Positions 7,458 through 31,020 of a stretch of 32,000 nucleotides of DNA are shown piece by piece. The notes under the pieces were generated by a model. It was not told the DNA's origin. It searched no databases and saw only the letters and a program-made list of their open reading frames with translations. Location of the stretch: contig NC_013926.1 of assembly GCF_000025665.1 (NCBI RefSeq), positions 360,001 through 392,000 of the forward strand. Reading direction: 5' to 3'. Position numbers and translations under genes: made by a program. Source of the stretch: Aciduliprofundum boonei T469. GTDB taxonomy: Archaea; Thermoplasmatota; Thermoplasmata; Thermoplasmatales; Aciduliprofundaceae. Numbering within the stretch: position 1 is the first letter of the stretch; each line of letters begins with the position of its first letter.

Positions 7458-7578
7458 CAGCCCCGGGAGGATTCGAACCCCCGTCGCGGGATCTCCTCGA
7501 AGCCCTTTGGGGGTAAAGCACCTTTTCCAAAGGGGCTTCGCCAAAGTCCCGCATGCTTGACCGCTACACCACGGGGCT
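7458..7578 (-). tRNA. tRNA-Gln(UUG) with a 48-nt intron (7493..7540) at the canonical 37/38 position
   Basis: Hand-folded cloverleaf: acceptor AGCCCCG/CGGGGCT, T-arm GGGGG-TTCGAAT-CCTCC, anticodon stem CGGGA/TCCCG, loop CU-UUG-G|intron|A. Mature length 73 nt. CCA is not encoded. Confidence 0.85.
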
Positions 7579-7622: not shown

Positions 7623-7934
7623 TTATTTTTCACCCAACTTCTCTTCCATAAAATTCAAAATGATATTGGCTCGAGGGAGCATCTCCTCCTCATACATATC
7701 CTTTGGATAATAATTTACAAGGGCATTCAAAACCGCACCTACGGCTCTTTCTTCTTTATCTTTCACATCTTCCAATTTTGCATACTCTTCTTTAACTTTA
7801 TTCACAAATTCTTTTTTAAGCTTTATCTCATCACTGCTGTCCTTAAATATTCCATGCTTCATCATATCCACTATGAGCGCCATACTCAGATGCTCTACAT
7901 ACTCCTCTAACAGCTTGCAATATTCCTCGTCCAT
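7623..7934 (-). CDS. Hypothetical protein (103 aa), charged and helical
   Basis: ATG ORF with plausible composition. The overlapping plus-strand ORF 7557..7910 is Phe/Ile-rich and starts inside the tRNA, so the minus-strand ORF is preferred. Confidence 0.5.
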   Translation of the reverse strand: MDEEYCKLLEEYVEHLSMALIVDMMKHGIFKDSSDEIKLKKEFVNKVKEEYAKLEDVKDKEERAVGAVLNALVNYYPKDMYEEEMLPRANIILNFMEEKLGEK

Positions 7935-9552: not shown

Positions 9553-10212
9553 ATGAAAGCGATTATAACTGGAGGAGACAGCGGACTCGGATTTCACATA
9601 GCAAAAGAGCTTAAAAACAGGAGATATGAGATAATAATCATCGCAAGAAACGAAGATAAGTTAAGAAGGGCGGCAGAGAATTTGAAAGCAAATTGGTATG
9701 CTATTGATTTATCCAAAAACTATGAGGATGCTGGAGAAATCATTAAAAGGAAGAATCCCACAATTCTGGTAAATAATGCAGGATTCGGATTGTATGGAAA
9801 ATTTGAAGAGCAGAATTGGGATAAACTCGAAAATATGATTAAACTTAATATTTTGGCGCTTACATACCTAACATACATAGGGCTAAAAGTTATGAATACC
9901 GGCCATATCCTAAATGTATCCTCAGTGGCTGCTTGCAGAGCTCAGAAGAAATTAAGCGTTTATGCAGCTACAAAATCTTATGTAGAACAATTCACCAAGA
10001 GTTTGAATAAAGAGAGAAGAAAAATTAAAATTTCATATCTTCTACCAGGTCCGACAAAAACGGATTTTTTCAAAAATGCCAATATGCCAACAAGAGGCTT
10101 TGAAAGATTTATGCTGAATCCAGAGAAAGTGGCGAAGTATGCCGTGGATAAAATGCTAAAAGGTAAGGAGAGAATAGTACCGGGAATCATCTACAAGCTC
10201 TACTGTCTTTAA
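9553..10212 (+). CDS. Short-chain dehydrogenase/reductase (SDR)
   Basis: TGGDSGLG (TGxxxGxG), NNAG and catalytic YAATK (YxxxK). ATG 9553 is preferred over the TTG 9526 given by the ORF track. Confidence 0.85.
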   Translation: MKAIITGGDSGLGFHIAKELKNRRYEIIIIARNEDKLRRAAENLKANWYAIDLSKNYEDAGEIIKRKNPTILVNNAGFGLYGKFEEQNWDKLENMIKLNILALTYLTYIGLKVMNTGHILNVSSVAACRAQKKLSVYAATKSYVEQFTKSLNKERRKIKISYLLPGPTKTDFFKNANMPTRGFERFMLNPEKVAKYAVDKMLKGKERIVPGIIYKLYCL

Positions 10213-10311
10213 AATTAAAAATACCCGAAATATATTTCAAACGCACATAGAGCTATCTGCACCAACAGAATGAGAGATATAGCCTTGCTCAATACATCCT
10301 TGAATAAATAG

Positions 10312-10437
10312 TGCCCGAGCCGGGATTCGAACCCGGGTCAAGGGCTACCTGCAAAGCCCCCTTCTTTACGGGTAAAGCACCTTTTTAAAGGGGCTTTTCC
10401 GCAGGCCCCCAGGATATCCATGCTACCCCACTCGGGC
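10312..10437 (-). tRNA. tRNA-Arg(GCG) with a 52-nt intron (10347..10398) at 37/38
   Basis: Acceptor GCCCGAG/CTCGGGC, T-arm CCGGG-TTCGAAT-CCCGG, anticodon stem GGGGC/GCCCT (one G-U pair), loop CU-GCG-G|intron|A. CCA is not encoded. Confidence 0.8.
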
Positions 10438-10463
10438 TTGGGAGGAAATTAGCATACACATAT

Positions 10464-10757
10464 TTATGTTTTGGTCATTTTCTTCTTTCTTTCCTTCGCA
10501 GTATAACCAGTTGCGCGGAAAAGAAAATCATTCCATCTTTTCAATGTTTCTTGGGCTAAGCTGCTCTCAACCTTTCTACTCTTTGTCTCTGCAGCCATTT
10601 TTCCATCCTCAATCCATACCTCTATTCTATCAAGAGCCCCGAAGGAAGATAAAAGATGTCCATTCTCTTCCCTAACATTCCCAAATATATCCTTCATTAT
10701 CTTCCCAATCTCTTCCAAGCTTTTTTTGTGACCTCTCTTGAAAGTATACAACCTCAT
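10464..10757 (-). CDS. Hypothetical protein (97 aa)
   Basis: ATG ORF downstream of and codirectional with the respiratory cluster. No recognisable motif. Confidence 0.5.
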   Translation of the reverse strand: MRLYTFKRGHKKSLEEIGKIMKDIFGNVREENGHLLSSFGALDRIEVWIEDGKMAAETKSRKVESSLAQETLKRWNDFLFRATGYTAKERKKKMTKT

Positions 10758-10783
10758 AAAAATAGGAAAAATTAAGGATATTA

Positions 10784-11266
10784 TTAACTTTTCTCCTCTT
10801 CCTTAGGTTTAGGAGGTACATAGTCCTCTGGCCTGAATAATACTTCATCCATATGTATCTCCTTATCCTTCTTCTCTCTAATCTCGTAAGTTGGTATAAA
10901 TTTGAACTCATCTATATTCTCCGTTACAAGCTCATACCTTGGAGTCAATATGAGTGATTTTGTAGGGCAAATATCGGTACAGAACCCGCAGTAGCAGCAG
11001 CGTCCATAGTCAATCACAGGCCTCCATTTAAGTCCCTTCTTTCCCGAATTCTCAATTTTAACATATGTAATTGCTGCTGCAGGACAAACTTTAGAACATA
11101 GCTGGCATCCTATACAGGTTTCAATATTATTAGAATGAAAGCCTCTATAGCGCTCTGTAGGTAATTCAAGCCCTTCTATATCAGTATGTTTTTGATAAGG
11201 ATACTTAACAGTATGGGGAGCTTTTGAAAGATGTCTCAATGCTTTAAAAGGTTTTACTATACTCAT
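10784..11266 (-). CDS. NuoI-like 2x[4Fe-4S] ferredoxin subunit (MbxN-like)
   Basis: Two CxxCxxCxxxCP motifs (CIGCQLCSKVCP, CCYCGFCTDICP). SD GAGGTGATC upstream. Last gene of the cluster. Confidence 0.85.
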   Translation of the reverse strand: MSIVKPFKALRHLSKAPHTVKYPYQKHTDIEGLELPTERYRGFHSNNIETCIGCQLCSKVCPAAAITYVKIENSGKKGLKWRPVIDYGRCCYCGFCTDICPTKSLILTPRYELVTENIDEFKFIPTYEIREKKDKEIHMDEVLFRPEDYVPPKPKEEEKS

Positions 11267-19541: not shown

Positions 19542-20062
19542 TCAAACACCTCTCTTAGGTATTTCTCAAAATCCCCTTTTATAATATCTCCAGCTTCCTT
19601 CTCATCCTCGCTGTGCACATAGATCCAGTGAATGTAATATTTATCATCAATAATCTGCATAGTCATAGTACCTGGAGTGAGAGTTATTGAATTTGCCAAA
19701 GCCAGCTTCCCGACAGGATTTTTCAAATCCGTCCTTATCCTCACAATACCGGGCTTTATAGGCCTCTTAGGACTCAAAACCCTATAAGCAACATCAAAAT
19801 TTGCTTTTATCATAGCCCAAATAAAAACAGGGATATATTTCAAAAACCACCAAACTCTATGGGGGGATAAATTATACAAACCCCTTTCGGATAAATGCTG
19901 ATAACTGAAAGCTGCTGCAATAAGTGATAGAACAATACCTGCTGTAAACTCCTGCAAAAATTGCTCCTCTTTAATCCCAGGTGAAAATGTGAATCCACAC
20001 CAAATTATGATGAATATCAGGAAGGCATACAGGAACCGGTTCGCATTGCTTACCTTTTTCAA
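19538..20062 (-). CDS. MrpE-like subunit (MbxA-like), first gene of the cluster
   Basis: MnhE-like core (VAYRVLSPKRPIKPGIVRI...LANSITLTPGT). The start is uncertain. The ORF track gives TTG 20185, only 8 nt from tRNA-Pro. I prefer TTG 20062, which is preceded by GAAGGTGGT and has a TATA-like TTAAATATAAAA about 45 nt upstream. Confidence 0.65.
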   Translation of the reverse strand: MKKVSNANRFLYAFLIFIIIWCGFTFSPGIKEEQFLQEFTAGIVLSLIAAAFSYQHLSERGLYNLSPHRVWWFLKYIPVFIWAMIKANFDVAYRVLSPKRPIKPGIVRIRTDLKNPVGKLALANSITLTPGTMTMQIIDDKYYIHWIYVHSEDEKEAGDIIKGDFEKYLREVFE

Positions 20063-20106
20063 GTTACCACCTTCTTTGAGGCTTTTTTCTCTCTGGTAAT
20101 CTTGAG

Positions 20107-20118
20107 TTTTATATTTAA
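20107..20118 (-). promoter_or_regulatory. Candidate TATA box for the Mbx-like operon
   Basis: The minus strand reads TTAAATATAAAA, about 45 nt upstream of the proposed TTG 20062 start. Assigned by eye only. Confidence 0.3.
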
Positions 20119-20192
20119 TCTTATTTGTTCGATTTCCGAACCATTGAAAAGGAAAAATTAATTTATTAGTTTGTTCATTCACCAATCCCCAT

Positions 20193-20313
20193 GGGGCCGT
20201 GGGGTAGCTTGGTTATCCTACCGGCTTTGGGAGAGGAACCACCAGCGGGTTCCTTTACCTCCTGCAACCCTCCAGAAAAGCCGGTGACTCCGGTTCAAAT
20301 CCGGGCGGCCCCA
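20193..20313 (+). tRNA. tRNA-Pro(UGG) with a 47-nt intron (20232..20278) at 37/38; its 3' end is the casposon target
   Basis: Acceptor GGGGCCG/CGGCCCC, T-arm TCCGG-TTCAAAT-CCGGG, anticodon stem CCGGC/GCCGG, loop UU-UGG-G|intron|A. CCA is not encoded. Confidence 0.85.
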
Positions 20314-20323
20314 CTACGAGGAG
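20309..20323. repeat. Target-site duplication, left copy (CCCCACTACGAGGAG)
   Basis: Identical 15-mer at 29400..29414. The left copy includes the last 5 nt of tRNA-Pro. Confidence 0.85.
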
Positions 20324-20359
20324 GGGGATATATATACATCCCCTCTTAAGTTCCCTTTT
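20324..20359. repeat. Left terminal inverted repeat
   Basis: GGGGATATATATACATCCCCTCTTAAGTTCCCTTTT matches the reverse complement of 29364..29399 at 35 of 36 positions. Confidence 0.9.
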
Positions 20360-23058
20360 CACATCACTCCTGATTTGTAGATCTGATATAGGATTGGATA
20401 CAACTTCCTTTTTCTCTTGGGATACTTTCCACGCTTTAGGTTTGTTTTAAGCTTCTTTATTGCCCTTAATGAGACTTTGACATCAGGATATTTTGCATTA
20501 ATATACTCTAATATTTTCTTAGGTGAAAGACTCGATATAAAATCTTTGAAATCTTCCATTTTCTCATATTCTATGTATTCAGGTATACCCATTATCATAT
20601 TTTTCTCTAGCTCGTTAGACTCCTTCCCTATGTATTTTATGTGGTCAACTGTTATTTGTCTCCTATTCAACAATCCAACATCCCCTTCATACTTTCCGTC
20701 ATGGTGGTTAAAGTAGTCTTCAAGAACTTTAGAAATGGGTTTCCAGTATTCTTTTGTATCTAAGGGTAGATCTTGAGAGCTCAGACCTGACTTGTAGTCA
20801 ATAAACGGTCGGTATGGTATAAGCTCAAACTTTTTATCTTGAGGGCTTATGAAGGGCATAATTGGTATTACTGGCTCACCATTCTCGGAGCGGTAGGCAG
20901 TCCCAACAGTAACAAAATTGAAAGGTTTTATCTTCTTTGCTAGTTCTTTATTATTGTTCAGATAGTCAAACCTTTTAAGAACCTGTGGGGTTGTGACTGT
21001 TAGTTGAGATACAGCATACTTGTGGTGGTATTTTTCAATTATCTCTTCTCTACTATCAGGGTGATAGTGCATTTTTAGAATATCTTCCCAAACCTCTTTT
21101 GGGTCTATGCCTATTATATGACCTAAGCCGTGAGAAGACTCTTTTAATATCTCTATTTTTTCACCATTAATACGATACAGGCAATACCTCTTAGCAGAGA
21201 TGCCATAAAATAGCACATTATCTAATGGTATGCCCTCTTCGTTGTCCTCGATTTTAAACATGTCAACACTATAAGAATAGGGGTTTAATTTTTCAAAGAG
21301 CTCCTTGACCTCTCTAACTTTTTCAGGTTTTACAAATATGCTGTCTGTATCCATGTAGGCATAGTACCCATTATTTGAAGCAATACTTTCAGCAATAGCC
21401 AAGATAAGCCTTGCACCAGAGGTTAGGAATATGGCTATTATTGGGTTATATGCCTTTCCAATGCTCTCTATTTTGCCTACCTTAGTGTTAAACTCTTCAA
21501 GACCATAGACGGTGATCTCCTTATCTTTTACTTTTTCACTATTTACCTCTATAAATATTCCATAAGAAGAAGCATTTGCTATTATCTTAAACTCATTCTG
21601 GATAACTTTTAACTTCTCAATATCTCCAATGCCTCTCTTTATTTGGTCTTTGTACTCAAGCCTCTTCTCTATGATCTTCTTTATGAAATTCTCTTCAGGG
21701 GCTATTGTAATACCGTTGATCTCTATAGCTCTTAAACTCTGTCTACCTACTGGCTCAAATGTCAAAGAATCTATTATTTCAGGGGCTTTTCCAGTTAAAA
21801 TTTTAGATGAAATTACATCTTCTATAGTGTACCATATAGGTCTTTGAGAAGTCAGGTAGTTAATTCCTATATTGTAGACATCTCCACGGTACTTCATCCT
21901 TATGGGTAATATGTCCCTATCAGGTCTTATTAATACAATACTCCTCATTAAAGGGTCTCTCCATACCTCTTTATCCTGTAGGCTTTCAACACTTATCTTT
22001 GATAGGAATGATTTGACCTCACCTTTGGTAGCTCTTACTCTTATAGACCTAGCCTTAAGAATCTCATCTAGCTTGAGTAGTATGAAAAGGGTGGGGTACA
22101 TAGAGGTAAAGTCAAGGTATGTAACGGGAATAGGGCTCTTCCTTATCTTACACTCAGTCCTACCACCATAATAAGTAGTCATAGCAAAGCCCAGTACCTC
22201 TTTAGGAAAATCAGGGTTAAGCTCCATAAATGGACTTATACCCATCTTATTGAGGTAGTACTTACCTATTGATGCTGGGGAATATAGTAGGTTTTCTTCC
22301 ATGTCTATATTGAACATCTCTTTTCTCTCCATAAGTTTAAGGTAAAGTTCAAAGGTCACTTGCACATCGTTTAAGTTGTACTCTATGTAGTCTTTATTTA
22401 TTGCTCCATGCCTCTCAGGGTGTGTCTTATAGTGCTCACACTTGAACTCTTTGGAGGCTGACTCTAAAGTATGTCTCTTGTTTGTTAGGGCAAATGCAAA
22501 AGTCCTCAGATCTACAAAATACCCTTCGTAGTGCGTGTATTTTCTCTTGCTCTTCTTTCTGAGTGGTCTTAAAAACTTTATAAAAGACTTTGTGGAGTCC
22601 AATGCTCTTATCATGACCCTTGGGTTTCTAGGATCCTTTGAGAGTGTAAAAGAAAAAGCCCTCGGGTCTTTCCTAGATATTGTGTAGTCAATAGCCAGTC
22701 TAGACAAGTCAAAAGGTAAGTTGAACCCTATACACTTTGCCCTTGCTTGGTAAACATAGGGGTAAAAGACCTTTTCAACAAACCTAGTCTTTGGTATGAC
22801 CTTAATACTGTGGCTATCTCCAAACTCTATTATTTTCTCCTTTTCAGACTCTTTTAGGTTATCTTCATAGAAAATATACCTCTCAATAACCTTATTGTTC
22901 CTTGCAATTAAACTTGATCCGAATAGTAGGTTTTGGTACTCATCAGTAGTTGTCTCGGTATCGAAAACAAGCAATAGTGAGGGGTTAGGTGATATTTTCT
23001 CTTTATACCCACTCCTATTATCACTATGAGAAAAACACCTTAGAGCAATATCACTCAT
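20359..23058 (-). CDS. polB: Family-B DNA polymerase (casposon PolB)
   Basis: Exo I FDTET, Exo II FNLPFD, Exo III YNLND. Pol A YLDFTSMYP, Pol B KIIANASSYG, Pol C YMDTDS, plus KRY. ATG 23058 is preceded by GGAGGT; the ORF track TTG is at 23073. Confidence 0.9.
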   Translation of the reverse strand: MSDIALRCFSHSDNRSGYKEKISPNPSLLLVFDTETTTDEYQNLLFGSSLIARNNKVIERYIFYEDNLKESEKEKIIEFGDSHSIKVIPKTRFVEKVFYPYVYQARAKCIGFNLPFDLSRLAIDYTISRKDPRAFSFTLSKDPRNPRVMIRALDSTKSFIKFLRPLRKKSKRKYTHYEGYFVDLRTFAFALTNKRHTLESASKEFKCEHYKTHPERHGAINKDYIEYNLNDVQVTFELYLKLMERKEMFNIDMEENLLYSPASIGKYYLNKMGISPFMELNPDFPKEVLGFAMTTYYGGRTECKIRKSPIPVTYLDFTSMYPTLFILLKLDEILKARSIRVRATKGEVKSFLSKISVESLQDKEVWRDPLMRSIVLIRPDRDILPIRMKYRGDVYNIGINYLTSQRPIWYTIEDVISSKILTGKAPEIIDSLTFEPVGRQSLRAIEINGITIAPEENFIKKIIEKRLEYKDQIKRGIGDIEKLKVIQNEFKIIANASSYGIFIEVNSEKVKDKEITVYGLEEFNTKVGKIESIGKAYNPIIAIFLTSGARLILAIAESIASNNGYYAYMDTDSIFVKPEKVREVKELFEKLNPYSYSVDMFKIEDNEEGIPLDNVLFYGISAKRYCLYRINGEKIEILKESSHGLGHIIGIDPKEVWEDILKMHYHPDSREEIIEKYHHKYAVSQLTVTTPQVLKRFDYLNNNKELAKKIKPFNFVTVGTAYRSENGEPVIPIMPFISPQDKKFELIPYRPFIDYKSGLSSQDLPLDTKEYWKPISKVLEDYFNHHDGKYEGDVGLLNRRQITVDHIKYIGKESNELEKNMIMGIPEYIEYEKMEDFKDFISSLSPKKILEYINAKYPDVKVSLRAIKKLKTNLKRGKYPKRKRKLYPILYQIYKSGVM

Positions 23059-23485
23059 ACTTATTACCTCCAAGGGGGAAACACCTTAGTGCAATTTCCC
23101 TAGCAATCCTCTCATAAAAGAAGTTTTGGGTCTTGTAAGCCTTTAACTCTAAAATATCTATGAGTCCCCTCAAAAAGAACTTGTGTCTCTTTTCTGTAGG
23201 TAATCCTCTCTTTAACCATTCTTCGCCCCATAGGTTCTGTTTAGCACTTAAATGTTGGTGACATTCTTTACAGACTAAAACGACCCTGCTGTCATGCTTC
23301 CTACCTGCAATATGGTGTCTTTCAAGACCTTTTGTAGCTCCGCATATCTCACAGTACTTTGGTAGCTCTCTCTCATACTCAAATAAAGAGAGAACCCAGT
23401 TCGAAGCTTTAGAATACTCTTTTTCAATAGTATCTCTAACATCCATAAGGATCTCATCAATGCATAGTGGAGACTGAGAATACAT
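23051..23485 (-). CDS. HNH endonuclease
   Basis: CEICGATKGLERHHIAGRKHDSRVVLVCKECHQHL is CxxC...HH...CxxCH, a zinc-stabilised HNH core. Its 3' end overlaps the polB start by 8 nt. Confidence 0.8.
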   Translation of the reverse strand: MYSQSPLCIDEILMDVRDTIEKEYSKASNWVLSLFEYERELPKYCEICGATKGLERHHIAGRKHDSRVVLVCKECHQHLSAKQNLWGEEWLKRGLPTEKRHKFFLRGLIDILELKAYKTQNFFYERIAREIALRCFPLGGNKYE

Positions 23486-23491
23486 AGGGAC

Positions 23492-24001
23492 TCACCAATT
23501 GTATATCTCATAGAACTCGGGTTCTTCTATAGACCTTGCAATATCTACCAGTTTTTCAGGGTCAGTCTCTAGCTTGTGTATGTTACCCTGAGCATCTTTT
23601 ATTTTTATGTTTCTAAACCTCTCAACAGCTGTAATATCACCAGTCTCTAGAAATATTCTTACTGCATTGTGGTACTTACCTATTATAGAAGCATACCTTG
23701 AGTCATTCACCTCTATGCTAATTTTCTTACCATTTTCATTTATGTCCATTACTCTAGAGATTTTGTCATACCTCTTTGCTATCCACCTACCGTTAACCTT
23801 CTTAAAAGCATTAGTGCTCTTAATCACGGTGTTTGGAGATATACCTACCTTCTTACATGCACTTGACAAAGACTCCCCTTTCCTTACTCTAGCAAGTACT
23901 TCCAAGCTCTTTTCCCTTAGCATTTTCTCTCGAGGGCTCAATAAGCTCCAAGGCTTCTTGAAGACCCTCTCTTTTCCAGACATACTACTTTTCTCTCTCA
24001 T
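23492..24001 (-). CDS. HTH DNA-binding protein (casposon-encoded)
   Basis: HTH-like LSSACKKVGISPNTVIKS. The start is ambiguous: ATG 24001 has TTTATAGTATAGG directly upstream (possibly leaderless), and alternatives are 23983 and 24064. The ORF-track start 24118 would overlap the divergent gene. Confidence 0.55.
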   Translation of the reverse strand: MREKSSMSGKERVFKKPWSLLSPREKMLREKSLEVLARVRKGESLSSACKKVGISPNTVIKSTNAFKKVNGRWIAKRYDKISRVMDINENGKKISIEVNDSRYASIIGKYHNAVRIFLETGDITAVERFRNIKIKDAQGNIHKLETDPEKLVDIARSIEEPEFYEIYNW

Positions 24002-24129
24002 ACCTATACTATAAACATTGGGGATATATAATATAGTGAATTCACTACACTTTACTTTATCCATAATGTTAAATATCTTTGAAAAACTTGAAAATACACG
24101 GAAAATATTATATTGCATTGTTCACTATC
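24002..24129. promoter_or_regulatory. Divergent promoter/operator region inside the casposon
   Basis: AT-rich spacer between divergent HTH genes. Contains GGGGATATATAATATA (24020..24035, the same first 11 nt as the TIR tip) and the perfect palindrome GTGAATTCAC (24036..24045). Confidence 0.4.
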
Positions 24130-25170
24130 ATGAGTATGGAAAAGTTCCAATCAGCTACTAGGATAATAGCACATAGAAGGAAACAAAAGACAAGAGAAAA
24201 AGTTCTTGGAATTATAAAATCACATGGAAAAATAAGGTTCAAAGAGCTTATGCAAGAAAGTGGGTTGTCTAATAGGTGGCTCTCTATAACTCTCCATGAA
24301 CTCCTTGAGGAGGGTCTGATTAAGCAAGTAATTGGGGATATAGAGGTTAAGGGTAAAAATGGGGAGCCTGTGTTAAAGAAGAGGGCTAAGTTATACACAA
24401 TCACTAAAAAAGGTGATAATGTTTACAGTAATGCATGGTATATATTACACAAACTAGAAGATTTGAGAGAAAGAGGTTCTACATATTATCATAACGATTT
24501 TGAACTATTTGGAGTTGATATAATAATGAATGGGGTAGAAGGTGATGCATTTAATACATTACCTACAATTCCAGAATATGAATTTTTCATAATGCGTAGC
24601 ATATTTAGAAAAGTGGGTGCATACGATATTAAAAACCTCTCAGGTGAAGTGATTATTGCACTAAACTTTGATATGCATAAATTAATTGGAGGTATTTTAG
24701 AAATTAAAGACTTCATTAAGATGTTAATTAAAAATGCCGATGTTTTTGAGAGTGATCTTTTTAGGGATATGGGTTGGAGAGATAAAATTCACAAGTTTAT
24801 ACATCTCCTTAATTATTCCAAATTACTAGTTGATAATAAGGATATAATTGAAAGAATAACGAAAAATGGGAATAAGTTATTTTTGTCCTACAAGCCATTA
24901 ATAATTTCGAGTTATTATCGTACTGGAAAAGGTCTTGATGAAGAAATACTAGAAAAGGTCAAAGAGCATATTGAAAATGATACAAATCCCTTAGAGGATG
25001 AAAATATTAAGCATAAATTGATTAGAAAATCTGGTAATATTACCGAATTTCCCATTTATGATTATTTAAATTTACTTAAGGTATTTAATCTCACTAATTA
25101 CCCATTTCTACAAAAAATAGAGTTAGTGAATGAAAAAATAACTAGAACAATAGAGAATGGAGGTATCTAA
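24130..25170 (+). CDS. Winged-HTH protein with a large C-terminal domain of unknown function (casposon-encoded)
   Basis: N-terminal wHTH-like KVLGIIKSHGKIRFKELMQESGLSNRWLSITLHELLEEGLIKQV. ATG 24130 is preferred over TTG 24079. Its stop is immediately followed by the cas1 ATG. Confidence 0.6.
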   Translation: MSMEKFQSATRIIAHRRKQKTREKVLGIIKSHGKIRFKELMQESGLSNRWLSITLHELLEEGLIKQVIGDIEVKGKNGEPVLKKRAKLYTITKKGDNVYSNAWYILHKLEDLRERGSTYYHNDFELFGVDIIMNGVEGDAFNTLPTIPEYEFFIMRSIFRKVGAYDIKNLSGEVIIALNFDMHKLIGGILEIKDFIKMLIKNADVFESDLFRDMGWRDKIHKFIHLLNYSKLLVDNKDIIERITKNGNKLFLSYKPLIISSYYRTGKGLDEEILEKVKEHIENDTNPLEDENIKHKLIRKSGNITEFPIYDYLNLLKVFNLTNYPFLQKIELVNEKITRTIENGGI

Positions 25171-26385
25171 ATGAACCCTCTTTTAGTTAGTGGTTATGGA
25201 ATTTCCATAAATGTGGATAAAAGGAAACTAGTAATAAGGGAAAAAGGTAAACAAGTTCACGAATTTTACCCCCACCAGATAAACTACGATTCCCTAATAA
25301 TTGAAGGTTATTACGGGAATATTTCCTTTGAAGCTATAAGATGGTTAATGAAGCACAATATAACGGTATCCGTTTTAAACTGGAACGGAAACCTACTTTC
25401 CGTATTTTTGCCTAAGGAACCCATTAACGGAAAACTGAAAATAAGGCAGTATGAAATATACATTAACGAAAAAGAGAGACTGAAAATTGCGGAAAAAATA
25501 TTAGAGGAAAAAATAAGGAAATCGGAAAATATGCTATATGAATTAAGTGAGTATTATCCAGAAATTGAGCACATTAAAGTAAAAAAGAGGATAGAAAAAG
25601 AGGAAAAACTAAAAAGGGACATGGAATTAAAAGAGGAAAATAAACCGAAATTATCCTATTTATTGATGTATGAGGGAAGGGTTGCGCAAATATACTGGAA
25701 AGAGTTATCAAAGATTTTCAATAAACTGTACCCTGAATTTAACTTCACTTCAAGGAGTACTAAGTCTTATTCTTGGAACATGAACGCTTCAGATGAAATA
25801 AATGCACTTTTAAACTATTCTTACGCACTACTTGAGTCTATGATAAGAAAGCATATCAATGCGGTAGGTCTAGACCCATCGATTGGTTTTTTGCATGAAC
25901 TAGCTTCCTCTAAGACCCCTCTTGTATATGATCTTCAAGAGCTTTTTAGGTGGGTATCTGACCTATCCGTTATCCAACTTCTAGAGGATAAGAAGTTAAA
26001 GAAATCATCTTTTATTGTAACTGAGAACTACCATATACGCCTTAAGCCCCAGACCTCAAAGCTCCTTGTTGAGAAGTTCAAGCTCAATATGAACAAGAAA
26101 TATGAAGTTGGTAAAAAGAGGTACACTCTGGAAACAATTATGTTCAATACAGTTCGATCCTTGGGTAAATATATCCTTGGGAAATCTAACACCTTGAAAT
26201 TTGAGATTCCATATATCCGTATAGAACATATAGAACCTGAATTAACAGAGAAAATACTTAAAATGACACCAGAAGAGAGGAAAGCACGGGGAATAAACAA
26301 GTCTACACTCTGGTACCAAAAGAAGAAACTGGCTCAAGGTAAGAGTATAAAAGTGTATGGGAAGGTAAAGAGTAAATTAAAATAG
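25171..26385 (+). CDS. cas1: Cas1 homolog (casposase) with a C-terminal HTH extension
   Basis: Cas1 signature blocks: LMYEGRVAQIYW (catalytic Glu), INALLNYSYALLES, GFLHE (His), LVYDLQELFRW (Asp/Glu). C-terminal TPEERKARGINKSTLWYQKKKL is HTH-like. GGAGGT lies 8 nt upstream. Confidence 0.9.
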   Translation: MNPLLVSGYGISINVDKRKLVIREKGKQVHEFYPHQINYDSLIIEGYYGNISFEAIRWLMKHNITVSVLNWNGNLLSVFLPKEPINGKLKIRQYEIYINEKERLKIAEKILEEKIRKSENMLYELSEYYPEIEHIKVKKRIEKEEKLKRDMELKEENKPKLSYLLMYEGRVAQIYWKELSKIFNKLYPEFNFTSRSTKSYSWNMNASDEINALLNYSYALLESMIRKHINAVGLDPSIGFLHELASSKTPLVYDLQELFRWVSDLSVIQLLEDKKLKKSSFIVTENYHIRLKPQTSKLLVEKFKLNMNKKYEVGKKRYTLETIMFNTVRSLGKYILGKSNTLKFEIPYIRIEHIEPELTEKILKMTPEERKARGINKSTLWYQKKKLAQGKSIKVYGKVKSKLK

Positions 26386-26407
26386 ATTTAAGTATTATAT
26401 CATTAAG

Positions 26408-29311
26408 ATGTCAGAAAAAAGAGGAAAGGTCACTGAAAGATCTTTATATCCAGCCATTATAGATCTATTAAAAAAAAGAGGTGCCGAAGGAGTCGAGGAG
26501 ATTAAATACGAATCTCAGCCAGATATAATCGCTGATTGGTTAGGAGCAAGATGGATTATTAGCATAAAAATAGGGAATTATACAAAAAGTATGTTCTTTA
26601 AAAATGCCATGATACAATATGCAAGGCATATAATTGATTCGGGTCTTAAATATGGAATGATTATATTTTTACCAGAGAGTATTAGAAATATTTCTGTAGA
26701 AGAGAAAGCTCTTTATAATGCTATCAGAAATAAAAAAGCTTATGTTATTTTAGATACTCCTGAAACTCAGAAAGAATTTTTAGATACCTTACCCAATATT
26801 TTTGAGGAAGTAGAAAGAATTTTAAAAGAGAAAATCAAATCCACATATAGTTTAAAAACGGTAATTACCCTTTTAAAAGAGCAAATCAATGATATTATGA
26901 AAGAGACTAGAATTACAGAGAAGGAAATGACCAATATAATTACAAGTGATGAATTGTTTCTTGGGATTAGTGCATCAAAACATAAGGATATAAAAGTAAT
27001 AAAGTTTATTTCGACATATATTTTTTTAACACAGGTTCTATTTGCTAGGTTATACGGTGTAGAACATCCAGCAATTTTAAGCGGTTTTGATATTAGAAAT
27101 ATAACTAAAGAAGGTATAAGAGAACTCTTTAGACGAATTACTGAGATAAATTATAGACCAATATATAAATTTGATATACTGGATACCATACCTGAACATT
27201 ATATAAAAGATACTTTCACTTTGATATGGAATTTAAAGATAGAAAATATTAGGTTTGAACTCCCAGGAAGATTATTTCATGAGCTTATGCCAAAAGAAAT
27301 TAAAAAAATGCTTGCTGCTTTTTATACTAGACCAATAGCTGCAGAAATTTTATCTTGTGTTACAATTAACAATGCTGAAGAAGTCGTATTTGATCCTGCT
27401 TGCGGTTCTGGTACGATACTGACTGCAGCATATAGAAGAAAACGAGAATTATGGAATAAACAAGAAGATCCTCACAAACTCTTTTGTGAAGAACAAATTT
27501 ATGGAACAGATATAATGCCATTTGCCGTAAATCTAACCACAGCTAATTTAGCATCTCTTAATCCTAAAATTACAATAGAAAAAATGAACATAGCAAGAGC
27601 TGATAGTCTTAAACTTGAACTAAACGTGCCTATTAAAAATGGTTTATCTAAATTAGAAAGATATGGTATACCTATCTCATCTAATATTAAAAGTAAGAAT
27701 ATGCAAGGTGATGAATATGATATGGTTCTAGACCTAATGGATGTTGTTCTAATGAATCCCCCATTTACAAAAATTGAAAGGGGAGTAAAGAAATATATAA
27801 AAATAGAGCGTTTCAAATCACGAGTTGGAGGAGAAATAGGATTATGGGGGCATTTTATAGCTTTGGCAGATATGATTCTTAAGCCAAATGGTATGTTTGG
27901 AGGGGTTATTCCTATTAATATATTGAGGGGAAGAGAAAGTGAAAAAGTAAGAAAAATAGTTTTTGAAGAGTGGTTACCTCTATATGTAATAAAATCAACA
28001 ATGAATTATGGTTTTTCTGAATCTTCTGAATATAGAGACATTCTAATAATAGCTAAAAAAACCAAATCAAAACCTATTAATCATAAAGTTAAGTTTGTTT
28101 TAATTAAAAAAGATCTAAATTCATTAAGCTTTAAAGATGTTAAGCGGATATGTGATAGGATTAAAACCTCATCAAAGTTAAATGACCCTCTACTAGAAAT
28201 AAGATCGTATTCTATGGAAGATATAAAAAAGCATTTTGTTAATATGATGTGGTTTATTAGTGGGTCATCTTTTGAATGGAAAGATAATCTTTTAAACATA
28301 ATAAGAAAATCCGAAATGGTGTTAGATTATTTCCCACATAGTGGTAATGGATATTTTATGGAAGGATATAGACCCGTACCAAAAGGTGTTTCTAAATTCA
28401 TGTTTATTACAAGACCTATTAATGAAAATAGGATCGATAAAGCCTTTTTAGTTCTCATCAAAGAAGATGATAAAAAAATATTCGCTGAAACAAAAATGAT
28501 GTATGAAATGAGTAAACTCAATGAACATTCAAAGAGTAGCATTTTCGATTTTGATAAAGATAAGTTTTTACTCACTATTAGAACACCCGTTGGATTGAAT
28601 ACAATGGATATTACAAATAAACATGATTATATTGCTATATCTCCTTATAAGGACATAGAAAAAATCCAGAGACTTTCAGGATTTAATAGTTCATTAAAAA
28701 ATAGTTATTGGAATAATATTAAAAAACAAATGAATAATATAAAAACTAAAATTATTGTAAGCCGTCGCATAAACCCTTATTCTCCAAATACACATTTGAT
28801 AGCTTTCTTCTCTGAAAATGATATTTTTCCTTCCAATCAAGTAAATGTGGTTGTAGAACCAGATCCAAGGAAGGCAAAAGCTGTGACCGTTTTATTAAAT
28901 TCAATATTTTTCTTGGCTTATTTCTTTAATCTTAAGGAAGAGACTACTGGGAGATATATAGATATTCGTTTTTATGATTTATACTCAATGAAACTGTATC
29001 CTACTACTAACACACAAATTGATAATTTAGTAAAAGTATTTAATAAATTTAAAGATGTAAATTTTCCTCCCTTAAGAGAGCAGCTTGATGAGCATTTTAC
29101 TGAAAGATATTCTGTATTCTGGAGCTCAGAAAGAAAAAAAATTAAGCCTTTGATACCTGTTGATTCTATAAAGCCGCATCCTGTACGACTAAAATTCGAT
29201 AAAGCCATAATAAAAGCTTTAAACTTATCAATTTCGCATGAAGAACTATTGCAAGCTTATAATGCAATAATAAACGATATGATTATTACCCGAGGATTAA
29301 AAAAAGATTGA
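26408..29311 (+). CDS. Large N6-adenine DNA methyltransferase, gamma-class, with N- and C-terminal extensions (type IIG/IIL-like single-chain R-M candidate)
   Basis: Motif I VFDPACGSGTILTAA is followed by motif IV LMNPPFTK. 967 aa. The N-terminal ~100 aa has a PD...(S)xK-like segment (QPDIIADWLGARWIISIK). The long C-terminal region could be a target-recognition domain. Confidence 0.75.
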   Translation: MSEKRGKVTERSLYPAIIDLLKKRGAEGVEEIKYESQPDIIADWLGARWIISIKIGNYTKSMFFKNAMIQYARHIIDSGLKYGMIIFLPESIRNISVEEKALYNAIRNKKAYVILDTPETQKEFLDTLPNIFEEVERILKEKIKSTYSLKTVITLLKEQINDIMKETRITEKEMTNIITSDELFLGISASKHKDIKVIKFISTYIFLTQVLFARLYGVEHPAILSGFDIRNITKEGIRELFRRITEINYRPIYKFDILDTIPEHYIKDTFTLIWNLKIENIRFELPGRLFHELMPKEIKKMLAAFYTRPIAAEILSCVTINNAEEVVFDPACGSGTILTAAYRRKRELWNKQEDPHKLFCEEQIYGTDIMPFAVNLTTANLASLNPKITIEKMNIARADSLKLELNVPIKNGLSKLERYGIPISSNIKSKNMQGDEYDMVLDLMDVVLMNPPFTKIERGVKKYIKIERFKSRVGGEIGLWGHFIALADMILKPNGMFGGVIPINILRGRESEKVRKIVFEEWLPLYVIKSTMNYGFSESSEYRDILIIAKKTKSKPINHKVKFVLIKKDLNSLSFKDVKRICDRIKTSSKLNDPLLEIRSYSMEDIKKHFVNMMWFISGSSFEWKDNLLNIIRKSEMVLDYFPHSGNGYFMEGYRPVPKGVSKFMFITRPINENRIDKAFLVLIKEDDKKIFAETKMMYEMSKLNEHSKSSIFDFDKDKFLLTIRTPVGLNTMDITNKHDYIAISPYKDIEKIQRLSGFNSSLKNSYWNNIKKQMNNIKTKIIVSRRINPYSPNTHLIAFFSENDIFPSNQVNVVVEPDPRKAKAVTVLLNSIFFLAYFFNLKEETTGRYIDIRFYDLYSMKLYPTTNTQIDNLVKVFNKFKDVNFPPLREQLDEHFTERYSVFWSSERKKIKPLIPVDSIKPHPVRLKFDKAIIKALNLSISHEELLQAYNAIINDMIITRGLKKD

Positions 29312-29329
29312 GTTCAATTAGTTCAAGTC

Positions 29330-29342
29330 TTTTTATTTTTTT
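29330..29342 (+). terminator. Oligo-T tract, candidate archaeal terminator after the methyltransferase gene
   Basis: TTTTTATTTTTTT lies 19 nt after the stop codon, just inside the right TIR. Confidence 0.35.
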
Positions 29343-29363
29343 GTGTTTAAATAGATATTTATA

Positions 29364-29399
29364 AAAAGGGAACTTAAGAGGGGATATATATATATCCCC
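29364..29399. repeat. Right terminal inverted repeat
   Basis: AAAAGGGAACTTAAGAGGGGATATATATATATCCCC. The terminal 20 nt (29380..29399) form a perfect palindrome. Confidence 0.9.
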
Positions 29400-29414
29400 C
29401 CCCACTACGAGGAG
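29400..29414. repeat. Target-site duplication, right copy (CCCCACTACGAGGAG)
   Basis: Identical to 20309..20323. Confidence 0.85.
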
Positions 29415-29487
29415 ACACCTACGATTAAGTCCCCCTTTGGGACTAACTCGCAGCTTTTGCTGCTCGTTTCCCCCTCTACCCTCTTCC

Positions 29488-29580
29488 CTAAGGGATAGGT
29501 GCTTTACCTCCCAAAGAAGAAAAGTGTTTTATCCCAAAAGAAAAAAGTTCCTTTAAAAAGCAGCTTTACCCCCAGAGAAA
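29488..29580 (+). repeat. Degenerate tandem units related to the tRNA-intron core (GGTGCTTTACC...AAAG-AAAA)
   Basis: Successive units: GGTGCTTTACCTCCCAAAGAAGAAAA / GTGTTTTATCCCAAAAGAAAAAA / GTTCCTTTAAAAA / GCAGCTTTACCCCCAGAGAAAA. Confidence 0.4.
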
Positions 29581-29646
29581 ATTTGCTTTTTCTATTCTAG
29601 AAATTAAAGAAAAAAAGCAATATATTCAAAAATATTTCAGATACAT

Positions 29647-31020
29647 ATGAAAAGATTTCCAAAGGTGAAAGTTATCACACTTATAGTGGTTTTGCTCTTA
29701 TTATCTATTACTGCAGGATATTATATTTTAAACACCAACAAAATAAAAATTTTGGAGTGTGGGTATTTCTTTGGTGCCAATCCCAAAAATCCTAATCAAA
29801 CAATAACCTACATTTATTTGAAATTATCTGCGCCTGTTCATAATGGGGATATTATCCATATTTACAAAAATGAAAGCGATTTTTACTATAACTTGGTGAC
29901 TTGGAAGGTTAATCGCACACAGGATGGCAAAACCAATATAACCATACCGCTTGATATGCTTGATAATCTCAATGGCTCCATGGACATTTATATAAAGAGA
30001 GGTAGTTCTTATCTTTACAGGGGAAAAATATCGTTTTCTGTACACCCCCACCTTGATGTATCCGTGACAAATATACATGTTCGTCCTGTAAGTGCCAAAT
30101 ACGCGTACATAACAAATGTGCATCTCTTAATAAAGTCTCAAAGACCAATTTATATATGTGGATTGAATTTTACAGTGTTTAATATGAATATCTACAAGGA
30201 GGTTAATAGTGTGATTTATGGTGTAAAGAAGGTTAATATAAGTGTGTCTCCTGGAAAGGTTGTACAACTTGTGCAAAAGGGCATCGTGCCTGTGAAGATT
30301 ACACTTCTCTATCCAGCATATCCCGATAATCTTGATAAGCCAGAGAAATATCCCGTTGATAGTGAATGTGTAATCAATTTCACTTACCCTCCTGTTGTTA
30401 TAACTAATTTCTCGATTTATAATTCTTCGTCATATCCGTCATATATCTTCCTTTTATTTCAACTCAGCAGATTTCCTGATTATCCGGTCCACATTATAGT
30501 TTACAAACTCAATGGTACAATTATAGGAGAAGGATATGGTGTTGGAATAGGTAAAAATGATACTGTATTCATATCCGTACCCTTCCCCCCTAATTATAAT
30601 TTCAACGGCACATATGTTGCAGTTTTAGAAGACAATTACGGATTTGCCCTTAATAGCCTTACATTTACTCTCAAATCTGGGCCACTTAAGTTAATTTCTC
30701 ACGAAGAAATATTTAATGAAACAAATGACCCCAATAAAGTGATTTTGAGATCACTAGTCCTTAAACTGGAGAATCTTGGAAATTTCAACTTCTACATAAC
30801 ACACTATGAATATAAGATAAGTTTTATTTCAAATGGCACCGTTGCTGCATCAGGGGACTATACTTGGTTCTATCAAGCGATACCCCCCAGAAAATTTACT
30901 AATGTAACCCTTCCATTTTATGTGCACCTCATTAAAGGAAAAACTTATAAAATTTCCCTTACATTTGAAGGTGGCAACAAGAATGTCAAATGCACGATTG
31001 ATTACACTTTTAAAGCGTAA
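29647..31020 (+). CDS. Secreted or surface protein with an N-terminal signal/anchor and many N-glycosylation sequons
   Basis: N-terminal KVKVITLIVVLLLLSITAGYY. I count 16 N-x-S/T sequons in 457 aa. Beta-rich composition and no recognisable catalytic motif. Confidence 0.6.
   Translation: MKRFPKVKVITLIVVLLLLSITAGYYILNTNKIKILECGYFFGANPKNPNQTITYIYLKLSAPVHNGDIIHIYKNESDFYYNLVTWKVNRTQDGKTNITIPLDMLDNLNGSMDIYIKRGSSYLYRGKISFSVHPHLDVSVTNIHVRPVSAKYAYITNVHLLIKSQRPIYICGLNFTVFNMNIYKEVNSVIYGVKKVNISVSPGKVVQLVQKGIVPVKITLLYPAYPDNLDKPEKYPVDSECVINFTYPPVVITNFSIYNSSSYPSYIFLLFQLSRFPDYPVHIIVYKLNGTIIGEGYGVGIGKNDTVFISVPFPPNYNFNGTYVAVLEDNYGFALNSLTFTLKSGPLKLISHEEIFNETNDPNKVILRSLVLKLENLGNFNFYITHYEYKISFISNGTVAASGDYTWFYQAIPPRKFTNVTLPFYVHLIKGKTYKISLTFEGGNKNVKCTIDYTFKA

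Follow-up and report, generated by a model that had tools for sequence, protein, structure and literature searches.

A casposon at the 3' end of tRNA-Pro(UGG) in Aciduliprofundum boonei T469 that is almost certainly the published AciBoo-C1

[quoted passage not shown] We have addressed this question in a stretch of 32,000 nucleotides (contig NC_013926.1, positions 360,001 to 392,000), which is what we call the window and in whose coordinates all positions below are given. An initial annotation of this stretch, made from its letters alone, had read the segment as a casposon, that is, a self-synthesizing transposon encoding Cas1, and had pointed to a likeness to the casposon already described in A. 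boonei. The segment at 20324-29399 is almost certainly the casposon of family 2 that A. boonei T469 is known to carry, AciBoo-C1, and the likeness turns out to be identity: over 15,840 nt, the window matches the T469 contig DS990515.1 (GCA_000151085.1) at 100%, the element corresponds to the locus Aboo_0387-0392, and its Cas1, its DNA polymerase and its large methyltransferase-domain protein are exact matches to ADD08202.1 (Aboo_0391), ADD08198.1 (Aboo_0387) and ADD08203.1, respectively. The features by which a casposon was recognised in the initial annotation (Cas1, a family-B polymerase, terminal inverted repeats, a target site duplication and a tRNA target) are all found here.

The element was named AciBoo-C1 and placed in family 2 by Krupovic et al. 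2014 (PMC4046053). Beguin et al. 2016 (PMC5137440) described a 9.1-kb casposon with the same target site duplication (TSD), CCCCACTACGAGGAG, the same gene map and the same 5-bp overlap with an intron-containing tRNA-Pro, and reported that the purified casposase inserts DNA ending in the terminal inverted repeats (TIRs) at the reconstituted site with a 15-bp duplication, i.e. that it is active and site-specific in vitro. Between the published AciBoo-C1 and our segment, the DNA, protein accessions, TSD, tRNA-Pro target, size (9.1 kb) and gene map are all the same, and the sole differences are differences of annotation (the cargo is read here as a type IIG-like fusion, and a call for one winged helix-turn-helix protein is absent from the draft record). 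The element is therefore not new; it is already published and biochemically dissected, and the present study adds no new biology on the casposon itself. Its value is rather that of a positive control: the A. boonei casposon is the best characterised of all and the very element on which the biochemistry of casposases was established, and a reading of the raw sequence recovered its ends, its duplication, its target tRNA and its gene content to the base. A study by Hickman and Dyda (2015), which we know through the papers that cite it, is said to have also dealt with the casposon of A. boonei.

The boundaries of the element can be given to the nucleotide. The segment 20324..29399 (9,076 bp) starts and finishes with TIRs of 36 bp, the left one, GGGGATATATATACATCCCCTCTTAAGTTCCCTTTT, at 20324..20359 (+) and the right one at 29364..29399 (+); the inverted-repeat search and direct reading agree on both, and the two arms pair at 35 of 36 positions, the sole mismatch being at position 14, where the reverse complement of the right arm has T for C. 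Both TIRs directly abut, on the inner side, a copy of the 15-mer CCCCACTACGAGGAG. The left copy lies at 20309..20323 (+), the same duplicated target site being printed in PMC5137440, and the right copy at 29400..29414 (+); direct reading and the repeat search give both. This is a perfect 15-bp direct repeat with exactly two copies in the window and no third copy there even if up to two mismatches are allowed, and two such matches occurred in none of 100 dinucleotide-preserving shuffles. The size of the segment, the length and pairing of its inverted repeats and the perfect direct repeat had all been claimed beforehand, and each of these claims is borne out by the searches.

The identity of the target is equally clear. 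Rfam (RF00005, 45.5 bits, E 8.5e-07) places a tRNA gene at 20193..20313 (+), which direct reading identifies as tRNA-Pro(UGG): the anticodon loop is TTTGGGA, hence the anticodon UGG, and an intron of about 47 nt is inserted after position 37. Its end at 20313 places the left repeat where it had been predicted to start, within the last 5 nt of the gene: these nucleotides (CCCCA) are the first five of the left TSD copy. Such an overlap, seen both by Rfam and by direct reading, fits the insertion rule of family 2 casposons, which enter at tRNA 3' ends with an overlap of 4-7 nt and leave the tRNA intact (PMC4046053). The tRNA-Pro sequence stays intact after the insertion in our case too, since the duplication of the 15-mer gives the gene back its last 5 nt. 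Further upstream, in the part of the gene that codes for the T-loop, a 'leader' motif TCAAATC is read directly at 20295..20301 (+), i.e. at -14 to -8 from the TSD, and TCAAATC at -14 to -8 is the recognition motif of the A. boonei casposase (PMC6614799); the determinants of recognition listed by Beguin et al. 2019 are TCAAATC, CC at +1/+2 and the five nucleotides at the TIR's 3' terminus (PMC6614799). ARAGORN reported no tRNA anywhere in the window and so missed this gene together with a tRNA-Gln and a third tRNA that are described at the end of this report; we consider these misses to be false negatives, because the introns of these tRNAs are long.

The casposase, a Cas1 homologue of 404 aa, is encoded at 25171..26385 (+). 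That this open reading frame (ORF) codes for a Cas1 had been claimed in the initial annotation, and the profile search leaves little to argue about, with E values of 5.1e-63 for Pfam PF01867 (Cas_Cas1) and 4e-54 for NCBIfam TIGR00287, all the CRISPR subtype-specific Cas1 models of NCBIfam scoring far under their cut-off. The closest relative of solved structure is 6opm (E 4.4e-75, 256 bits, residues 2-392), and the next-best Cas1 chain in the PDB reaches only 93 bits (E 1.5e-25). We take 6opm to be the casposase of Methanosarcina mazei (Hickman et al. 2020), the search output itself labelling all matches as Cas1. The catalytic-type positions are occupied by E168, H242 and E257. The Cas1 domain ends at about residues 303-339 and is followed, at about 355-404, by a C-terminal helix-turn-helix (HTH) extension that aligns with 6opm through residue 392; a C-terminal fusion of Cas1 with an HTH domain is specific to family 2 casposons (PMC4046053). 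Judged from these sequence comparisons, the protein appears nearer to casposases than to CRISPR-associated Cas1.

The second hallmark gene, at 20359..23058 (-), codes for a family-B DNA polymerase of 899 aa, and here the outcome is more nuanced. The initial annotation had seen all exonuclease and polymerase motifs in this protein and had proposed profile searches with family-B models as a check. The motifs stand, but searches with the single sequence returned nothing in Pfam (to E 10), in NCBIfam or among the PDB sequences, which comes close to a failure of that check. The assignment rests on four other lines of evidence. The exonuclease motifs (Exo I D33/E35, Exo II N113-D117, Exo III Y227-D231) and the polymerase motifs (A D316-Y321, B K491-G500, C D570/D572 and KxY K623-Y625) are all invariant across 26 homologues of 43-53% identity; a profile built from these 26 homologues matches Pol alpha (2e-06) and archaeal PolB (1e-04) across motifs B and C; eight of the 26 match PF00136 on their own (best 1.4e-10); and the AlphaFold model (predicted local distance difference test, pLDDT, 88; predicted TM-score, pTM, 0.84) retrieves family-B polymerases exclusively in the top 50 Foldseek matches against the PDB (E 3e-14 to 4e-12), phi29, Pol alpha, RB69, Pol zeta, Pol II and poxvirus polymerases among them. 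Since motifs, profile, homologues and predicted fold agree, we do not take the failed single-sequence searches as a refutation, and membership in family B is confirmed by the four together. The automated annotation labels this polymerase as hypothetical. This has a practical side, as a polymerase that is not seen by single-sequence Pfam or NCBIfam searches means that pipelines would describe elements of this kind as 'Cas1 plus hypotheticals'.

The remaining genes of the core had likewise been predicted (an HNH nuclease and two HTH proteins), and they are present, with profile matches that are weak. The HNH-type nuclease candidate (144 aa, 23051..23485, -) shows by direct reading a motif of the form CxxC..HH..CxxCH (C45xxC48, H57-H58, C72xxC75-H76) and matches HNH and HNH_5 at E 0.05-0.06, the HNH region of IscB at 0.0014 and the ZorE HNH at 0.003; the gene is kept beside that of the polymerase in related casposons, at 37-46% identity. 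Next to it, at 23492..24118 (-), lies a gene for an HTH protein (HTH_23, E 0.005) of 163-208 aa depending on the gene call, its start being uncertain, which is also kept in related casposons (37-55% identity). The winged-HTH (wHTH) protein (346-363 aa, start again uncertain) is encoded at 24079..25170 (+), divergently from the polymerase arm, and gives weak matches to HTH_45, HTH_24 and Csa3-HTH; the draft genome record of A. boonei is without a gene call for it at 24079-25170. In family 2 casposons, an HTH protein that bears HEAT repeats at its C terminus is conserved (PMC4046053). The five-gene core of family 2 (Cas1, PolB, HNH and two HTH) is complete in our segment, the HNH member being identified from weak profiles and its motif, and the genes form two arms, PolB-HNH-HTH on the minus strand and wHTH-Cas1-methyltransferase on the plus strand, with all six ORFs intact.

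The last of these ORFs, at 26408..29311 (+), is the presumed cargo, a protein of 967 aa with an N6-adenine methyltransferase (MTase) domain. The MTase had been recognised in the initial annotation, and the N6 MTase cargo of AciBoo-C1 was noted by Krupovic et al. 2014 (PMC4046053). We think that there is more to this protein. Besides PF02384 (E 4e-14) and PF07669 (E 7e-10), it matches the PADLOC profile REase_MTase_IIG at 8.7e-13, and its MTase domain (about 270-610) is set between an N-terminal and a C-terminal domain. The first 90 residues are predicted to form an alpha-beta-beta-beta-alpha-beta arrangement, with E10, P38, D39 and K54 as invariant residues of the protein. The AlphaFold model (pLDDT 84) finds as its best Foldseek match the type IIG enzyme BpuSI (5e-24), ahead of proteins that are MTases only, and DrdV is matched too. 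This ranking of the modelled fold makes it likely that the protein is a BpuSI-like, single-chain type IIG restriction-modification enzyme, in which case the cargo 'methyltransferase' may be a complete restriction-modification system in one polypeptide. Its nuclease activity is uncertain, because the usual acidic residue (D/E) before the lysine is a serine, S52. Full-length homologues (about 950 aa, 43-57% identity) occur widely, Thermococcus, Archaeoglobales and Chloroflexi being among the groups that have them, and in the three genomes in which their surroundings were examined, they have unrelated neighbours and no recognisable restriction or specificity partner.

If the segment was inserted, relatives without it should show the site as it was before, with a single 15-mer, and this was indeed the prediction. 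We scanned for the 3' half of tRNA-Pro in one genome per species and obtained 51 loci. One of them (L017, contig WALG01000147.1 of the DHVE2 metagenome-assembled genome (MAG) S014_41, reverse strand, about 7836-7900) is the predicted empty site: it reads ...GGCGGCCCCACTACGAGGAGACACCTACG..., with a single CCCCACTACGAGGAG after tRNA-Pro, and continues with the same downstream flank, ACACCTACG...CTCTACCCTCTTCCCT, which is homologous to positions 29415-29495 of the window. A degenerate second copy of GGGGACACCTACGG is seen in the same contig about 115 nt further downstream. Five more loci (L011, L022, L023, L027 and L047) are syntenic, their product of the adjacent MnhE gene being 66-93% identical, and no casposon genes occur beside tRNA-Pro in L011, L022, L023 and L047, the contig of L027 ending 5 nt past the tRNA and being uninformative. 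No casposon-free relative carrying both 15-mers was found among these loci, in agreement with the claim that the repeat is a duplication made on insertion. A tblastn search with all casposon proteins found no second casposon at the tRNA-Pro site in the DNA fetched for the 51 loci, and the TIR end AACTTAAGAGGGGATRTATATAT has no match in the viral contigs of IMG/VR.

Relatives of the element itself come from metagenomes. Cas1 proteins about 50-57% identical to ours occur in the same layout, with PolB-HNH-HTH divergent from Cas1, on contigs that include Ga0315282_10000737 and Ga0213870_1001096, and in four metagenomic loci (L062, L064, L065 and L068) the PolB-HNH-HTH / Cas1 core is syntenic at 37-56% identity. 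Contig Ga0315282_10000737 carries two family 2 casposons in tandem (L065 10480-10560; L068 1948-2015 and 15364-15421). The complete copy measures about 13.4 kb and has perfect 46-bp TIRs beginning with GGGGGATATA, like those of AciBoo-C1 with GGGGATATA, and a TSD of 12-13 bp, ATTACATCGTGG(G), is common to the right end of one copy and the left end of the next. These metagenomic casposons share with AciBoo-C1 the order of the core genes and differ from it by the lack of the MTase cargo and, in the tandem pair, by TIRs of 46 bp and a shorter TSD. On another contig (L066, Ga0315282_10000398, 9710-11182), 218 nt separate a tRNA-Pro(UGG) gene from the start, downstream of it, of a Cas1 gene whose product is 54% identical to ours, and this position suggests that the element in question may use the same kind of target as the A. 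boonei casposon; the contig stops before the far end of that element.

Among the described systems, the closest to AciBoo-C1 are the family 2 casposons of M. mazei with their casposase (PDB 6opm; Hickman et al. 2020, PMC6977970; Krupovic et al. 2016, PMC4779613), which have the same core (PolB, HNH and two HTH) and a Cas1 that aligns with ours including the C-terminal HTH. They differ in host, in target tRNA and in cargo, and the identity between the Cas1 proteins is roughly 40-45%, as read from the alignment. Recent mobility of the M. mazei casposons has reportedly been seen by comparative genomics, unlike that of AciBoo-C1. The Cas1 integrase of casposons is thought to be ancestral to the CRISPR adaptation machinery. 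The adaptation module of CRISPR-Cas systems shares with AciBoo-C1 the Cas1 fold and catalytic residues of the E/H/E type, and both integrate in a staggered manner beside a 'leader', with duplication of a segment of fixed length, which is the repeat in CRISPR and the TSD in AciBoo-C1 (PMC5137440). Unlike the CRISPR module, AciBoo-C1 is accompanied in the window by neither Cas2 nor an array, it integrates a 9-kb element set by its TIR ends instead of short spacers, and its Cas1 suffices alone in vitro.

How the insertion at 20309..20323 would have come about can be proposed in some detail. [quoted passage not shown] For the other steps the gene content offers candidates: the element's own family-B polymerase may copy it (the 'self-synthesizing' part of the proposal), the HNH nuclease may aid excision or the processing of the ends, and the two HTH proteins may regulate the two divergent arms, the large MTase-domain protein being presumably cargo.

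Several points weigh against our reading, and we would not like to hide them. The polymerase is so divergent that curated profile searches with its sequence fail, and the profile support for the HNH nuclease is weak (E 0.001-0.06). Replication, excision and regulation of the element are steps that we infer. As for mobility in vivo, there is a single copy in the window, and the same sequence is found at the same position in an environmental MAG (L005). One may then ask whether the segment is a casposon by descent that has become a fixed, immobile resident of the A. boonei lineage, whose genes are kept not for transposition but for some benefit to the host, for instance a restriction-modification-like activity of the cargo. 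The single copy, the identity of sequence and place in T469 and in the environmental contig, and the one mismatch between the TIRs all agree with such a fate. We nevertheless find it very unlikely, on several grounds: the six ORFs are intact, the insertion looks recent because the TSD is perfect and the TIRs pair at 35/36 positions, the casposase shows activity and site specificity in vitro (PMC5137440), and the empty or casposon-free sites of the relatives point to a lineage-specific insertion.

Two other explanations would deny that the segment is a casposon at all. Strong matches to the generic Cas1 models PF01867 and TIGR00287 are what one would also expect if the gene were left over from the adaptation module of a CRISPR-Cas system, unrelated to the repeats that flank the segment. 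As had been claimed initially, though, the window contains no CRISPR-like array by two repeat searches, and Pfam scans of its ORFs found neither cas2 nor any other cas gene; the subtype-specific Cas1 models stay far under their cut-off, the protein scores 256 bits with 6opm against 93 bits with the next chain, with the HTH extension included in the alignment, and the gene sits inside a unit bounded by TIRs and TSD, its linkage to PolB being conserved. We give this explanation practically no weight. The alternative of a plasmid or provirus integrated in tRNA-Pro by a tyrosine or serine recombinase, with the 15-mer as att core, has in its favour that the 3' ends of tRNA genes are classic att sites and that a direct repeat at the end of a tRNA is expected of such an integration. 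It is scarcely credible here, for Pfam scans found neither a tyrosine or serine recombinase nor a DDE transposase in the element or in the flanking ORFs of the window, again as had been stated beforehand, there are no capsid or packaging genes, TIRs of 36 bp abutting the repeat are typical of transposition and not of att recombination, and the reconstitution in vitro of integration by Cas1 at precisely this site has been published (PMC5137440). We thus reject both, the recombinase-borne island on the strength of that published reconstitution, and retain the reading of the segment as AciBoo-C1.

One observation may bear on the activity of AciBoo-C1 in the cell. In the Logan contigs of the sequencing run SRR606249, one contig (L003) stops at 29399, exactly where the right TIR finishes, and the next one (L006) starts, by position arithmetic, at 29370, so that the two overlap by 30 nt; the left junction of the casposon is unbroken (L008). 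We take a 30-nt overlap to be the mark of a branching node in an assembly graph with k=31. The right end of the casposon reads ...ATATATCCCC and is followed by CCCCACTACG in the chromosome, the reconstructed junction of the empty site is GGCGGCCCCACTACGAGGAGACACC, and an exact fold-back continuation of the right end would read TCTTAAGTTCCC. The outermost 20 nt of the right TIR, GGGGATATATATATATCCCC, are a perfect palindrome, those of the left TIR, GGGGATATATATACATCCCC, an imperfect one. It is conceivable that in some molecules of this sample the right end was joined to something other than the chromosome, as would happen if the element were excised, hairpin-ended, circular or inserted anew, and we consider this unlikely; more prosaically, library preparation may have produced a fold-back artefact at the palindrome. 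If true, an off-chromosome right end would be the first sign of activity of AciBoo-C1 in vivo, and a clue to its excision or replication intermediate. In any case, public reads of the strain can be mined for casposon ends in vivo.

The flanks of the element encode enzymes of nicotinamide adenine dinucleotide (NAD) biosynthesis, regulators, a DNA glycosylase, a membrane complex of the Mbh/Mrp type, a peptidase and the like. The G+C content, computed over 20001-31000, is 0.35-0.39 in the PolB-HNH-HTH arm, 0.28-0.32 in the wHTH-Cas1-MTase arm and about 0.40 in the host flank. Just beyond the right TSD, an ORF of 457 aa (29647-31020, +), in a region of 0.32-0.35 G+C, codes for a secreted-looking protein with a hydrophobic segment near its N terminus and numerous N-x-S/T sequons. 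Neither Pfam nor PADLOC gives a match, nor does tblastn in the DNA of the syntenic relatives, which mostly reaches only shortly past the tRNA; the same-species MAG (L005) carries an identical copy. We considered it as a part of the casposon or of an older insertion and have left it as a strain-specific gene, as it lies outside the TSD and matches nothing in Pfam or PADLOC.

Finally, the window contains at least three intron-containing tRNA genes. Besides tRNA-Pro, there is a tRNA-Gln(UUG) with a 48-nt intron at 7458-7578 (-), found by Rfam and not by ARAGORN, and a tRNA-like gene at about 10306-10432 (-), for which direct reading gives an acceptor stem GCCCGAG/CTCGGGC and an intron, and which is reported neither by ARAGORN nor by Rfam at the gathering threshold. 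An 18-nt motif, GGTGCTTTACCC(C/G)(C/T)AAAG, occurs in four copies in the window (0.03 expected), two of them in tRNA introns (7505-7522, -, and 10364-10381, -) and two in the tRNA-Pro trailer downstream of the casposon (29498-29515, +, and 29560-29577, +). The intron of tRNA-Pro in the relative with the empty site (L017) resembles the tRNA-Pro trailers of two other loci (L022 and L058), and the shared motif, together with this likeness between intron and trailer, suggests a common, possibly mobile, intron-like element.

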